Assembly: GCA_951406725.2 (NCBI GenBank)
Contig: OX597814.1
Location: forward strand, 113,956,001 to 114,020,000
Source of the DNA: Octopus vulgaris
Lineage: Eukaryota
Reading direction: 5' to 3'
Length of the DNA: 64,000 nucleotides
The number at the start of each line of letters is the position of its first letter. Within the stretch, counting starts at the first letter, position 1. Positions 7,150-57,342 of the stretch are shown piece by piece. The notes below the pieces were generated by a model, which was not told the origin of the DNA, made no database searches, and saw only the letters and a program-made list of their open reading frames with translations. The position numbers were made by a program, and so were the translations under genes.

Positions 7150-7813
7150 TTCGTTTTTGGACTTGGTTTGCAAGATTCTTTATGTGAGTTCGTATGTTGA
7201 AGCATATTCTGTTGTGTCTGGGGAGAGTCATTTTCTTTTTGTGCCTTATAATGTAACACACTTAGTGGTAAAATTTCCACTTATATCTTATTTTTATTTT
7301 CCTAAAATATTCGTTGCGTCTTGCAAACCTTTTCAATAGTCTGAGAGTATAATGATTTCTGGTAGATTCGTTCGAAGAAATTGCCAGCATCTTTTTGCTG
7401 CCGACAAAAAAAAAACAAACAAACTGCGCTTGCGCGGTGGATTTGAAGAAAAAAAAATGTATAAGCCAGAGGCACATACTGGATTGGCCTCGTGTTTATA
7501 TGTTTAATCTTGGCGTCCCTGTTGAAGAAGACTTCGCCTGGTAAATTATTTTATTTGCTAAAATAAGTCAGAAACCATGGTCCAGGAAAGAGATGGTAAA
7601 TGTTTTTATCTTTCTTTCCCTTCGAGAATTTATCCCTAATTAGTGGTTTGAACTTTAGCTGTTCTTTCTAGCGTAAAGGATTCCTATGAGGGAAACCTCT
7701 TAATGTGTTTAAATGTACACTGTATTTTATATGAATAATATATAGTCTATTGACTAATTTTTCTATACGCTAGGCCACTGGTAGTAAAAATTTCTAAAAT
7801 CTTTATTACCCTG
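7150..7813 (+). mobile_element. (TA)n-flanked non-coding element carrying a hammerhead motif
   Basis: Bounded by CT/TA and (TA)n tracts. 7497-7735 aligns with the reverse complement of 57092-57342. Ends TTACCCTG followed by (AT)n. Confidence 0.65.
7518..7586 (+). ncRNA. Type I hammerhead ribozyme, core variant (TTGAAGA)
   Basis: CCTG-[TTGAAGA]-AGACTT..AAGTCA-[GAAA]-CCATGG-TC-CAGG. Helix I is CCTG/CAGG, helix II is GACTT/AAGTC, helix III is the palindrome ACCATGGT. The core C is changed to T. Confidence 0.6.
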
Positions 7814-7861
7814 ATATATATATATATATATATATATATATATATATATATATATATATAT

Positions 7862-8062
7862 AAATCTTAGATAAAACTTATTCGACCAAAGGCCATGTCT
7901 AACTTAATAGCACCACCTGATAGGATTATCTAAATCCTTTTTAAGTCAAGTTTTGTGGTATCATGGTCCATTCAAGTAGTGAGTTTTTGTTGAGTCAGTT
8001 GTATCCAGGTATGGGTGGCTTATCCGGTATTCCTTGAAGAAATTTGTCCAGACTCCGTTTAT
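7862..8062 (-). mobile_element. CR1-like LINE 3' end
   Basis: Reverse complement of about 27180-27390. Encodes ..LDKFLQGIPDKPP.. followed by the 3' UTR. Confidence 0.7.
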
Positions 8063-8827
8063 ATATAATATATATAATAAAAAATATAAGGATAAAAATC
8101 TATATGAGATTTTATCGAGAATAATCGCCACCCGTTCTAAGAATCGAACATACGATCTTATAGTCATGAGTCCAATACTCGAAGCTCTAAGCCACACGCC
8201 TTCGCCAGTTATCGCGCATTAGTGATATTTAATAATTTGATAACCACTATGCTATTCAATAAACTCATTTTTCAACAGCTTTGAAACTATATTTCACGAA
8301 TGGAATATTTAATATCTTGTTTGGAAGTGGGTCAGAACAGGTCAACAAAGATATACTGATACGTTGAAGATTTTCGACGAAGGATGCACTCTATATCGAT
8401 GTCTGATATCTCTACATCAGTGGAAATATCGGAGGTCGGCAGGTATCATATCACACATCAATTATGTAGCTTTTCATGTTTTAACACTATTTACGCATGT
8501 TTTTACGAAGCTATTTGCTGCTGTTTGTAGCCAGATTGAATGGAACTGCAAAAGCTGTATGTCTATGTTGAAGGCATAGCGAAGATCCGATTTCGCTGTA
8601 TGTTTATCACCGACCGTTCGGCTGACAAGCTGGTCTCTATCAATTAGAATTCTAATATAATTGAGTCAATGTCTCGAGGTTGATTCCAGTCGAATGATCG
8701 ACAATATTTAAACTCCGTTCAAAAGTTCTCAGCACACAAATTTATACGAAGAACTGTACTCCATATTAAAAAAAAAAGGATTTTAATCAAATGAAGTAAA
8801 ATTTTGTCTGTTATACAACTCTTGTTA

Positions 8828-53753: not shown

Positions 53754-55110
53754 ATTAAGGAGTAATATTGATAGTAGTAGTAGTAGTAGTAGTAGTAGTA
53801 GTAGTAGTAGTAGTAGTAGTAGTAGTAGTAGTAGTAGTAGTAGTAGCGGTAGTAATTGTAGTAGTTGTTGCTGTTGTTGTTGGTGTTGTTGTCTTGGCTG
53901 TTGTTTGACACCGAACATCAAAACTTCCTACACGTCAAGCTTTACTTGTTAAATCGGTATTACATTGGTTAGCATAATAAACATGGTTCTTTATTGGAAC
54001 TTCTTCTCTATAGAATTTACCTCCTGAATGTGTTTTCTCAAAACCTTTGAATAATGTGTAATATACTTCAAATAGCAGGCTCTATTCATACCATTTCAAC
54101 AATTCTTCTTCTGAAGTTATGCAAACACCAAACCGCTCACTGGCTTTACTTTCTTGGAACACGAAACACTAAGAGTCTAGGTTGTCTTCCTTTAATAGTT
54201 GAAGCTAGGGAATGTTAATATTAATGTTCACTAGACTGGAATCTGAGTTGCTCTTCACAACAAACTGTTTAAGTCATTCAAAACAACAGATGTAGTGATG
54301 GCGCTGAATAGGTACTGTGTGGACGCAGATCACTTTGAAACGATGCTGTTTCGGTTTCAATCCCACTGCATGTGTGTTTTATCACATCCTTGCGAGTGAA
54401 AATGTGAAATAAAACAACTATATGGAAGTCAGTCGCAGAAGAAAAGAGAAGTCCTGCTTTCAGGTGCTAGATTTAATCTCTCATCCAGATTAACACCGCT
54501 ACTTCTACCCTTGATGTTTTAGCGGTCATCACACTATTGCAAGCATTCTTATGAGGGTTTCAGTCTTAAAATGACATCGTCCCTTTCTTCTACTAGTTTC
54601 CGAAGCCTGGAAAAAGGTTATAGGTGGAGGGTTTTTCCCTTCGAATGCTAGATCTTCGTTGTTCTACGATAAAGATTCAGTTAATCAATACATCGAATAA
54701 CCTGCTATTTGAAGTTGGTCTGTTAGTGGCCAAGTATTCCACAGCCACTTGTACCCTCAGCGCAATTTTCGGGCATAATCATCATGACACTGAGAATGAC
54801 GAAGCTGTACCTTTTTTAATTACTGGTACAATTAATTCGGTGAGTTTGATTGCAGTTTCCATCGACTTAATTTCACTCACGACGTATATTAGTCAACTTA
54901 AAGCTACAGAAAACATCTGTTCAACAGAACACCTTGCACCGGGACCAAAACTCGGAGCAACGTCGTTGTGAAGTGACCTTCTTGACCATTCGGCCATACT
55001 GGCTCCACCCTTATCTGAGTGATGGCGGTGGGAATGGTTCTCCGTCGTTCGATGATGACAATTCAGCTGCTTGATTAAACCAAAAGCTATAATTACAACG
55101 CAATAATATT

Positions 55111-56421
55111 CTTTTCTTTCTACTCTAGGCACAAGCCTCGAATTTTTGGGGGATGGGGCCAGTCGATTAGATCGACCCCAGCTGGTACGCAGCTGGTGCT
55201 TAATTTATCAACCCCAATAGGATGAAAGCAAAGTCGACCTCGGTGGAATTTGAACTCAGAACGTAAAGACAGACGAAATACCTATTTCTTTACCACCCAC
55301 AAGGGGCTAACACAGAGAGGACAAACAAGGACCGACAAACGGATTAAGTCGATTATATCGACCCCAGTGCGTAACTGGTACTTATTTAATCGACCCCGAA
55401 AGGATGAAAGGCAAAGTCGACCTCGGCGGAATTTGAACTCAGAACGTAGCGGCAGACGAAATACCTATTTTTATTTCTTTACTACCCACAAGGGGCTAAA
55501 CACAGAGGAGACAAACAAGGACAGACAGACGGACTGATAAAGTCGATTATATCGACCCAAGTGCGTAACTGGTACTTAATTTATCGACCCCGAAAGGATG
55601 AAAGGCAAAGTCGACCTTAGCGGAATTTGAACTCAGAACGTAACAGCAGACGAAATACCGCTAAGCAATTCGCCCGGCGTGCTAACGTTTCTGCAAGCTA
55701 GCCACCTTGATTCAGAAACCAATATTCTTTTCTACTCGAGACGCCAGAAATTTTTTTTTGGGGGGGGGGTAATCGATTAGAGCTACCTCAGTATGCAACT
55801 GGTACTTAATTTATCTACCCCGAAATGATAAAAGGCAAAGTCGACCTCGGCGGAATTTGAACTCAGAACGTAGCGGCAGACGAAATACCTATTTCTTTAT
55901 TGCCCACAAGGGGCTAAACACAGAGAGGACAAACAAGGACAGACAAACGGATTAAGACGATTATATAGTTTGATGCGATCCTGTACCACTCTTTGCTCCA
56001 ACGATTACAATACAACTCAATATATCGGTTTCACATTTTGGCTCCAGGACAGCCCGTTCGAGGGATGGCGTAAGTCAATTAGATAAATTTCAGTGCTCGA
56101 CTGGTACTTATTTTATCGACCCCGAAAGGATGAAAGGCAGATCAACCTCGGCGGAATTTGAACTCAAACCGTAAAAACTGACGAAATACCTATTTCTTTA
56201 CTACCTACAAGGGGCTAAACACAGAGAACACAAACAAGGACAGACAAACGGATTAAGACGATTATATCGACCCCAGTGCTTAACTGGTACTTAATTTATC
56301 GACCCCGAAAGGATGAAAGGCAAAGTCGAACTCGGCGAAATTTGAACTCAGAACGTAGCAGCAGACGAAATACCGCTAAGCATTTCGCCCGGTATACTAA
56401 CGTTTCTGCCAGCTCACCGCC
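55111..56421 (-). mobile_element. SINE family A multimer array bounded by one TSD-like direct repeat
   Basis: Six central-domain units. TTACAACGCAATAATATT at 55093-55110 and TTACAACACAATAATATT at 56422-56439. Confidence 0.9.
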
Positions 56422-57091
56422 TTACAACACAATAATATTGTGTTTGTAATTGCCTTGACAGCTGACGACGCAAAGAGTGTTAGACACAAAAACTATAACT
56501 GCTCTATAACAAAAGCTGTCAGTGTAAACAGTGTTTTAATGGATAACCGGAGAACATTGAAAATTACTTTAAATCTTTTCAAAATATTTTTCTTGCTTCT
56601 TTGTTGTTGATTGTCTTTAAACAAAGCAGAAATGTTTTCTTTTAAATTCTTTTATTTGTTTCGGTCATTGCTCTTTGGGGCCATGCTGGGGCACCACTTT
56701 GGAAGGTTTTGGTCGAATACATCGACCCTAGGATTTACTTTTTAAGTCGAGCACTTATTCTATCAATCTCTTTTACCGGACTGCTAGGTTACAGAGACGC
56801 AAGTAAACCAAAACGAGGTATCAAGTGGTGGAGTGGGAGCAACCAGTCACAGAGAGACATACACGCGCGCGCATACACACACACATAATTAAGGAAATAA
56901 AGAAAAAGTTTAACACATCGTTAATGATTAGTTACAATTGTTTCAGTATTGTCTCTGTCCTCACACCATTGCTGCAAAAGTTCCGTATGATATATATATA
57001 TATATATATATATATATATATATATATATCGTATATACATACATACATACATACATATATATATATATATATATATATATATATATATATA

Positions 57092-57342
57092 TCATACGAT
57101 ATAGTGTATATTTAAACACATAAAGAATCCACTTATAGGGATTCTACGCATTAGAAAGAACAGCTAAGTTCTATGACCACAAAAAATTCGGGATAAAATT
57201 CGACAGGAATAAATTTGGAAATTAAAAACATTTACCATCTAGTTTCCTGGACCAATTGGTTTCTAATCATCTTTTAGCGAGTCATGGAGAACTCACAAGA
57301 TTTGATTTTCTTCTGCAGGTCCAACCTAGTGTTAAACATATG
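57092..57342 (-). mobile_element. Hammerhead-containing element related to 7150-7813
   Basis: Collinear homology with 7497-7735. Flanked by TA/TATG tracts. Confidence 0.7.
57246..57319 (-). ncRNA. Type I hammerhead ribozyme, core variant (CAGAAGA)
   Basis: CCTG-[CAGAAGA]-AAATCA.ATCTT.GTGAGT..ACTCGC..AAGAT.GATTA-[GAAA]-CCAATTGG-TC-CAGG. Palindrome ACCAATTGGT. Core T to A change. Confidence 0.6.

Follow-up and report, generated by a model that had tools for sequence, protein, structure and literature searches.

Introduction

Retrozymes of animals that lack long terminal repeats are non-coding, carry a type I hammerhead ribozyme and occur as monomers and tandems (PMC7229834; 10.64898/2026.07.22.740005). 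They have been proposed to depend on Penelope-like elements (PLEs), and according to the 2026 preprint the retrozyme mechanism remains to be elucidated (10.64898/2026.07.22.740005). Elements with the same features were found in the genome of Octopus vulgaris in a stretch of 64,000 nucleotides (nt) of contig OX597814.1 (assembly GCA_951406725.2, positions 113,956,001 to 114,020,000 of the forward strand), which is called the window below. They share a 14-nt sequence, the box, and the analysis makes it rather likely that the box belongs to an RNA domain that positions two starts of reverse transcription. The box-bearing elements are retrozymes of an already known kind; what was not met in the literature covered is a shared, predicted structured signal tied to two putative starts of a reverse transcriptase (RT). 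Their units have a length of 505-584 nt. A motif and fold common to several families, two fixed ends and a lineage without a detectable hammerhead were not found described for metazoan retrozymes in the available text of the two sources, the supplements of which were outside the coverage.

The second related system is the Poseidon element PAc of Anolis. In vitro its protein requires RNA downstream of the hammerhead, and reverse transcription starts at two internal sites that match the genomic tail, which makes the tail optional; ribozyme cleavage is dispensable, also for insertion, the targets are AT-rich, and the protein is predicted to be a dimer (PMC11167929). Two putative internal starts downstream of the hammerhead and an optional tail are likewise seen in the octopus elements. 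PAc is coding, its starts lie in an AC-rich stem-loop, and its tail is given as 30-40 nt (PMC11167929), whereas the octopus RNA is non-coding, the tail comprises 90-120 nt, and the starts flank a predicted three-way junction with a fixed core. The third system is formed by the Neptune and Naiad PLEs, which resemble them in their partial tandems, in the inversion of 5' parts, in the presence of a tail at one end, and in a preference for (TA)n (PMC8557442). In contrast to them, the octopus elements have no open reading frame (ORF), and the sampled octopus PLE families with a C-terminal nuclease do not have the box.

A conserved box is present in many divergent retrozyme families

A sequence-only reading of the window had proposed a conserved box at five positions, and all five were exact and located where they had been placed (7658-7671, 15456-15469, 44533-44546 and 49116-49129 on the plus strand, 57151-57164 on the minus strand). 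Shuffled DNA yields 0.01 matches for a stretch of this size. Because the pattern had been derived from the same five sites, the genome-wide count is the fairer control. The search of 2.8 Gb revealed 52,638 matches, compared to 276 for the reversed pattern. The signature of the elements at 44 kb and 49 kb (group II) alone had 13,017 matches versus 2 in the control, and no match in metagenome and viral contigs.

For classification, 100 distinct exact matches around the first 100 listed places were used, all from the first 5.7 Mb of contig 1. They comprised 43 copies of an old tandem family, designated family B, 27 copies of group II and 18 copies of groups I and III, while 12 were unassigned. 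The box is carried by many divergent families of non-coding, hammerhead-bearing retrozymes and by family B. The motif was not described in the literature found; Repbase, subscription journals and supplements were outside the coverage and may hold these families, and the main text of an octopus repeat annotation contains the word "ribozyme" 0 times (PMC13282606).

The earlier statement that the elements align poorly outside the box applies to the flanks of groups I and II. It does not apply to the copies at 7.6 kb and 57 kb, which align with 72% identity over 315 nt; they are homologous and, thus, not independent cases. Two boxes reported as orphans near 24184 and 52706 were indeed present with one mismatch each (24183-24196 and 52707-52720), but are in fact parts of family B copies. 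An element ending near 45052 on the minus strand, listed previously only for its CCCT, has a diverged box of its own (45080-45093).

Copies stop at two fixed distances from the box

The copies of the young families were embedded in (TA)n and were found as partial tandems with periods of 505, 557-566 and 584 nt, as truncated monomers, and as inverted insertions with two arms. Partial tandems, 5' truncation, an inverted 5' arm and TA flanks are hallmarks of the Penelope type, and such a layout of partial tandems, truncation and inverted arms has been described for PLEs (PMC8557442). A TA run was present within 220 nt after the box at 23 of the 27 group II sites and at 17 of the 18 sites of groups I and III (40/45 altogether), but only at 2 of the 43 family B sites.

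Two copy ends were observed, one about 36-64 nt past the box (end 1) and one 120-215 nt past it (end 2), which are about 90-120 nt apart. Among 80 group II copies, 38 stopped at 42-64 nt and 26 at 138-178 nt; the other 16 were not scored, 14 because no TA run was in range and 2 because CCCT was missing. The group I families had the same two-end pattern. The inverted, TA-bounded insertions of groups I-III had one arm ending at end 1 and the other at end 2 in 28 of 35 cases; two further cases used end 1 twice, and in five cases one arm was beyond the bins. The distance between the box and end 1 was nearly constant across the families, while that between the box and the hammerhead varied (73-84 versus 119-132 nt). 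The copies thus show the optional tail that two starts would generate, with a tail of 90-120 nt that exceeds the published 30-40 nt. The apparent ends contain TA microhomology, and, therefore, the true junctions may lie a few bases earlier.

It had also been claimed that the elements end with RCCCT directly before TA-rich DNA. The CCCT sites were found at the positions given, but CCCT is not the end. At two such ends of group II the TA run begins mostly 9-11 nt after CCCT, which forms the 3' base of a hairpin about 9-11 nt ahead of the copy ends. A predicted hairpin of this type, closed by GG/CC plus CU, precedes both ends of group II, end 2 of group I and the end of group III. The 15-kb and 57-kb copies stop at an end that has no CCCT.

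The box is the center of a predicted three-way junction

Compensatory changes suggest that the box lies within a three-way RNA junction of the helices P0, P1 and Pa. For 12 group I sequences, RNAalifold predicted helix Pa, in which the final box letters, together with the 4-5 variable letters after them, pair with the tail, and a terminal hairpin that has the CC of CCCT at the end of its 3' arm. Helix P0 was added by hand. P1 is a hairpin of 4 base pairs (bp), in which the variable Y and M of the box belong to the 3' arm, and it caps a loop of 6-8 nt that ends with two purines, C and U.

With P0 included, 87% of the cells were paired and 13 of 26 pairs had double changes. The covariation score was reached by none of 500 shuffles, and when the partners were slid only 39-46% were paired. 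In Pa 94.7% were paired, with compensatory changes in 4 of 8 pairs; in the terminal hairpin 8 of 12 pairs were compensatory. The registers of the variable part of Pa and of P1 had been chosen to maximise pairing; in these registers, the variable part of Pa was paired in 50 of 60 cells versus 39.0 after permutation (reached by 0 of 10,000 permutations), and P1 had Watson-Crick pairs in 50 of 72 versus 43.5 expected (reached by 7 of 5,000). Folding of single sequences, read by eye, resulted in the full junction for 5 of the 12.

The hairpins with an upstream GAAATRGC that had been proposed for the 44-kb and 49-kb copies exist, with the 5' arms at 44512-44519 and 49093-49100. In group II the box belongs to a longer hairpin, whose 3' arm it forms, and the beginning of Pa is shifted by a few letters downstream; in 8 of 8 sequences, 8 or 9 of the 9 Pa pairs are formed.

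The elements of the window and their parts are as follows.

7522-7586, plus strand: group I retrozyme, type I hammerhead motif with long stem II and the variant core TTGAAGA (core 7522-7528, GAAAC..GTC 7571-7582); the core variant recurs in the sister copy L224
7641-7648, plus strand: 5' strand of P0 of the predicted three-way junction, pairs with 7774-7779
7658-7671, plus strand: box, with the end of the P1 loop, the 3' arm of P1, a UUU junction and the first 4 nt of Pa
7766-7779, plus strand: 3' strand of Pa (7766-7773, 8 bp with 7668-7675), directly followed by the 3' strand of P0
7780-7813, plus strand: terminal hairpin with GG/CC closure plus CT (CCCT 7808-7811); end 2, then (TA)n
15031-15250, minus strand: inverted, rearranged pieces of the same group I family, with a two-mismatch box (15031-15044) and a tail piece (15183-15250)
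15282-15386, plus strand: type I hammerhead motif with long stem II and palindromic stem III
15456-15469, plus strand: group I box; the copy stops near end 1, without CCCT
24075-24345, minus strand: decayed family B copy with the one-mismatch box 24183-24196
44066-44600, plus strand: group II retrozyme, about one unit, in (TA)n, beginning within the tail (CACCCT 44094-44099); tandem period of its close family 584 nt
44315-44406, plus strand: type I hammerhead motif of the 44-kb retrozyme
44512-44583, plus strand: hairpin 5' arm (44512-44519), box (44533-44546) and 5' strand of Pa (44548-44556)
44580-44583, plus strand: CCCT of the GG..CC-CT hairpin before end 1 of the 44-kb element
45053-45097, minus strand: truncated group III element with diverged box (45080-45093), GG..CC-CT hairpin and end 1
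48699-49180, plus strand: young group II retrozyme with a unit of 563-566 nt, from the CCCT of end 2 to end 1, in (TA)n; copies elsewhere in the genome are 98-100% identical
48929-48997, plus strand: type I hammerhead motif of the 49-kb retrozyme
49093-49171, plus strand: hairpin 5' arm (49093-49100), box (49116-49129), 5' strand of Pa (49134-49142) and hairpin with CCCT (49168-49171)
50457-50494, minus strand: tail-only remnant without box, with the 3' strand motif of P0 (50487-50494) and terminal CCCT
52441-52740, plus strand: decayed partial tandem of family B with the one-mismatch box 52707-52720
57097-57330, minus strand: group I retrozyme with a unit of 505 nt that stops at end 1; box 57151-57164
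57250-57315, minus strand: hammerhead of the 57-kb retrozyme; the core of this copy is damaged

The box marks one lineage and is not a general partner of hammerheads

Hammerheads were located with custom scripts; an Rfam scan of the window had no hammerhead family among the matches listed (150 of 158), nearly all of which were microsatellite-driven matches to miRNAs. Upstream of all five boxes of the window there is a type I hammerhead motif, in which stem II is long and stem III palindromic. The hammerhead core and stems I-III are present in units of groups I and II, and the cores at 7.6 kb and 57 kb are variant or damaged. The cut site is separated from the box by 75, 76, 132, 127 and 85 nt, in agreement with the proposed spacing of 75-135 nt.

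Genome-wide, the proposed association was confirmed only in part. A hammerhead at a fixed upstream distance was present for 18 of the 45 boxes of groups I-III, i.e., for 10 of 27 in group II (119-132 nt) and 8 of 18 in groups I and III (73-84 nt); many of these copies are 5'-truncated. One weak case was seen among the 12 unassigned boxes, and none among the 43 boxes of family B. In 400 kb at arbitrary positions, the box occurred 15 times when up to one mismatch was allowed, compared to 2 times in shuffled DNA. Strict hammerheads were detected 10 times, compared to 0 after shuffling, and 1 of these 10 had a box downstream; a further boxed hammerhead with a mutated core was noticed by eye. Because 1 of 10 random hammerheads was boxed and 0 of 43 family B boxes had a hammerhead, the box is regarded as the mark of one element lineage, not as a general hammerhead partner. 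Several hammerhead lineages with different ends appear to coexist in the genome. Other hammerhead repeats with long stem II had no downstream box in the copies seen (loci L167, L181, L183 and L189), and the window contains at 14140-14146 (plus strand) a truncated hammerhead start like that of the family in L167 and L181.

Family B has a unit of about 250-290 nt, often in head-to-tail tandems, and is about 30% decayed. A profile search gave 21 matches in 460 kb of arbitrary DNA, which extrapolates to roughly 10^5 copies. It carries the box, a downstream hairpin and a CCCT-like word, and its majority sequence has no canonical hammerhead core; at about 30% decay, it may contain a divergent ribozyme. 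In 31 copies, collected by means of a profile without the box, the identity was 75% in the box (300/402), 69% upstream (1948/2821) and 63% downstream. The excess over the flank is small, and, therefore, no selection by the host is claimed. We infer that family B was spread by the same machinery as the retrozymes. Family B may alternatively be read as a short interspersed element with an (AAC)n tail on the opposite strand, but a circularly permuted unit agrees better with its tandem arrangement and with the GTT-rich stretches that flank the copies on either side.

Family B (for example 52441-52740, L227, L199 and L018) contains a CTGA word reminiscent of hammerheads and lacks GAAA. When the opposite strand is considered, the box makes a hairpin with a GAAA tetraloop inside a pseudoknot-like topology. 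Ribozymes like that of hepatitis delta virus have a G at position 1, a P1.1 pair and an invariant catalytic C. Such a ribozyme was considered and rejected; the topology was suggestive, but the key letters, read by eye, were absent or variable.

A proposed recognition domain for a borrowed Penelope-like enzyme

The reading that we favour with moderate confidence is that the box domain is a recognition domain, which positions two reverse-transcription starts of a borrowed Penelope-like enzyme. The box would be the invariant core of a three-way junction in a large lineage of non-coding retroelements. A Penelope-like RT/endonuclease encoded elsewhere would bind the junction domain and set two copying starts, with end 1 inside the loop closed by Pa and end 2 after the hairpin next to P0. 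The bound protein would nick (TA)n on both strands, and cDNA would be primed about 10 nt 3' of each hairpin, one strand per site, via TA microhomology. The role of the hammerhead would be limited to processing or circularisation of the RNA, and, therefore, family B could keep the box without a detectable hammerhead. The sequence-only reading had considered RT recognition, priming or transcription as the function of the box. Recognition or priming is supported indirectly by the nearly constant distance to end 1 and the covarying fold; transcription fails for the promoter element of small nuclear RNA (snRNA) genes (see below).

Several results weigh against this proposal. Above all, the 3' regions of loci chosen for autonomous PLEs were scanned for the box, and it was found in 0 of 130 (0/60, 0/40 and 0/30). 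These loci were collected with the window's own coding family, with GIY-YIG matches (70 of 148) and with a distant protein query; judged by eye, they represent about ten families, in each of which the nuclease is C-terminal. Three of the loci did not belong to such elements, and TA runs shortened a part of the 3' regions. Naiad elements, which have an N-terminal nuclease, and other clades are outside the sampled families. No Penelope-like ORF was present within 900 nt upstream of the box at 271 distinct sites, and none of the sampled box-bearing elements encodes a Penelope-like protein. A parasite usually carries the recognition signal of its host element. Furthermore, the tail comprises about 32-40 nt in the coding families that were sampled, and not 90-120 nt. 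End 1 of group I has no CCCT and follows a different hairpin. Within the fold, P0 is weaker than the other helices (77.8% paired, compensatory changes in 1 of 6 pairs), the families have a common descent that the shuffle controls do not take into consideration, and the choice of registers mentioned above has to be taken into account. The box also pairs differently in group II, which fits a constraint on the primary sequence as well. The partner may belong to a clade that was not sampled, it may read shape instead of sequence, or the box may serve a host factor.

A coding family was also seen in the window, as a truncated Penelope-like element between TA runs with a CxxC linker and, at the C terminus, a GIY-YIG domain (37434-38318, minus strand). 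This family is young (133 scored copies with 95-100% identity) and has a minimal hammerhead, the core of which is of the U3-A8 variant, and a tail about 40 nt long; the box is absent. In another coding Penelope-like family (L255, L257, L259, L262, L273 and relatives) the 3' regions contain tandem CCAAT-box and cAMP response element (CRE)-like words (GATTGG, TGACGTC), likely an internal promoter.

A bolder version of the proposal, which is possible but doubtful, is that Penelope-type RTs choose their template via a telomerase-like three-way junction with the box as its core, that a dimeric enzyme starts both cDNA strands from one RNA, and that the signal is older than the hammerhead and independent of it. 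If this were true, a retroelement would possess a domain that corresponds in function to telomerase CR4/5, and retrozymes would be paired with their helper by an identity code specific to the lineage. As the Penelope RTs are sisters of telomerase RT, a structured RNA handle would bear on the origin of telomerase's dedicated RNA.

Both versions address the choice of an RNA by Penelope-like proteins and the way in which copies of animal retrozymes enter the genome. Dozens of natural variants define the core of 14 nt, a covarying fold that extends over about 150-200 nt, and, to within a few bases, two putative starts, and the box domain is, thus, a small and mutable substrate for a direct test of binding and priming. 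In addition, the box is a tag for more than 50,000 repeat copies, including the old family B.

Alternative explanations

Among the alternatives, it is unlikely, though worth serious attention, that the junction binds a host factor which stabilises, circularises, transports or replicates the RNA, and that the RT starts are merely exposed nearby. All covariation data fit this equally well, it accounts for coding elements without the box, and metazoan retrozymes accumulate as circles, probably using host ligases (PMC7229834). It predicts, however, neither the nearly constant distance between box and end 1 nor the repetition of the GG..CC-CU module at both ends, and other hammerhead families of this genome spread without the box.

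An improbable alternative is a function at the DNA level, i.e., as a promoter or transcription-factor site that drives transcription of the tandem units. The box has a constant sequence in spite of different pairing contexts in groups I and II, as would be expected for such a site, but the variable box letters covary with their RNA partners. The one promoter class that was compared was the proximal sequence element (PSE) of snRNA genes, which is also a short box of fixed sequence some 40-60 nt upstream of a fixed point. Identity with the PSE was rejected, as no box within two mismatches was present in the 130 nt upstream of 20 U1, 20 U2 and 20 U6 matches, many of which are array copies or pseudogenes. 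In this genome the snRNA upstream element has another sequence and was found near -58 at 20 of 20 U1 and 18 of 20 U2 loci. It was absent within the units of seven box-bearing loci; a single match, in L089, was in the flank.

Some further observations concern these promoters. The core of the snRNA upstream element near -58 reads ATCAGTS, and downstream of the genes there is an AAAYAGAC-like word (U1/U2 loci L281-L320). In the U1 array of contig 18 (L301-L318) a decayed, family B-like box is present about 370 nt upstream of U1 in 17 of 18 copies, and several types of U2 loci have boxes in their flanks. L286 and L293, U2 genes of different clusters, have a common upstream sequence without the snRNA element, which would fit an insertion at the first nucleotide of U2. 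Upstream of the hammerhead, GC-rich words common to the copies were noticed by eye in the units of L195, L224, L232, L239 and L061, namely GCGC palindromes in group I and CACGYG followed by a G-rich box in group II; they are better promoter candidates than the box.

It is very improbable that the box is the slowest-changing relic of a common ancestor without a present role, or a regulatory site kept by the host. The families do share their architecture, some align directly, and in old family B copies the identity of the box is modestly higher than that of the upstream flank (75% versus 69%). The flanks of groups I and II are, however, unalignable while the box is intact, and the paired flanks show compensatory changes, which together indicate selection during the spread of the elements. 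The margin in family B argues against strong selection by the host after insertion.

Mimicry of telomerase RNA is a remote prospect. The domain would have a CR4/5-like junction, a P6.1-like hairpin and a template-like ACCCU, and would recruit telomerase or a telomerase-like RT without nuclease. TERT binds CR4/5, which is a three-way junction (PMC3950677), the RTs of PLEs are a sister group of TERT (PMC8557442), and a coding partner with the box was not found in the sampled loci. Like the predicted octopus fold, CR4/5 with P6.1 has three helices, one of them a short hairpin with a U-rich loop, and is used by an RT of the PLE/TERT group (PMC3950677; PMC8480181); the octopus hairpin has 4 bp and a loop that starts U-rich. 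But this loop has 6-8 nt, no invariant G, and two purine positions that both vary between A and G, compared to the 5-nt loop of P6.1 with an invariant U and G (PMC3950677), and the junction lengths differ as well. The likeness is topological only, and at most a working analogy. In addition, telomerase RNAs of protostomes have no P6.1 (PMC8480181), GG/CC pairing partly accounts for CCCT, TA targeting, inversions and two ends are Penelope hallmarks, and added telomeric repeats were not noticed by eye at the copy ends inspected.

A 3' splice site of an intron in a Penelope-type 5' untranslated region can practically be dismissed: the box is pyrimidine-rich and ends with AG in many copies, and group I has a donor-like GTAAAT about 60 nt upstream, but 38 of 76 distinct group II copies, young families included, end with AA or AC, which makes an acceptor unlikely, and in the group I family of the 57-kb element both AA and AG occur, accompanied by corresponding changes in the partner strand.

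Further features of the window

Two regions, 34544-35122 (minus strand) and 58645-59290 (plus strand), contain open frames that by eye resemble fragments of a long interspersed element RT; two scanned frames had no Pfam match. Upstream of the tail-only remnant at 50457-50494 there is a near-perfect inverted repeat of 169 nt (50558-50726) with a sub-threshold Rfam match to MIR7724, which is probably the inversion junction of a Penelope-type insertion.

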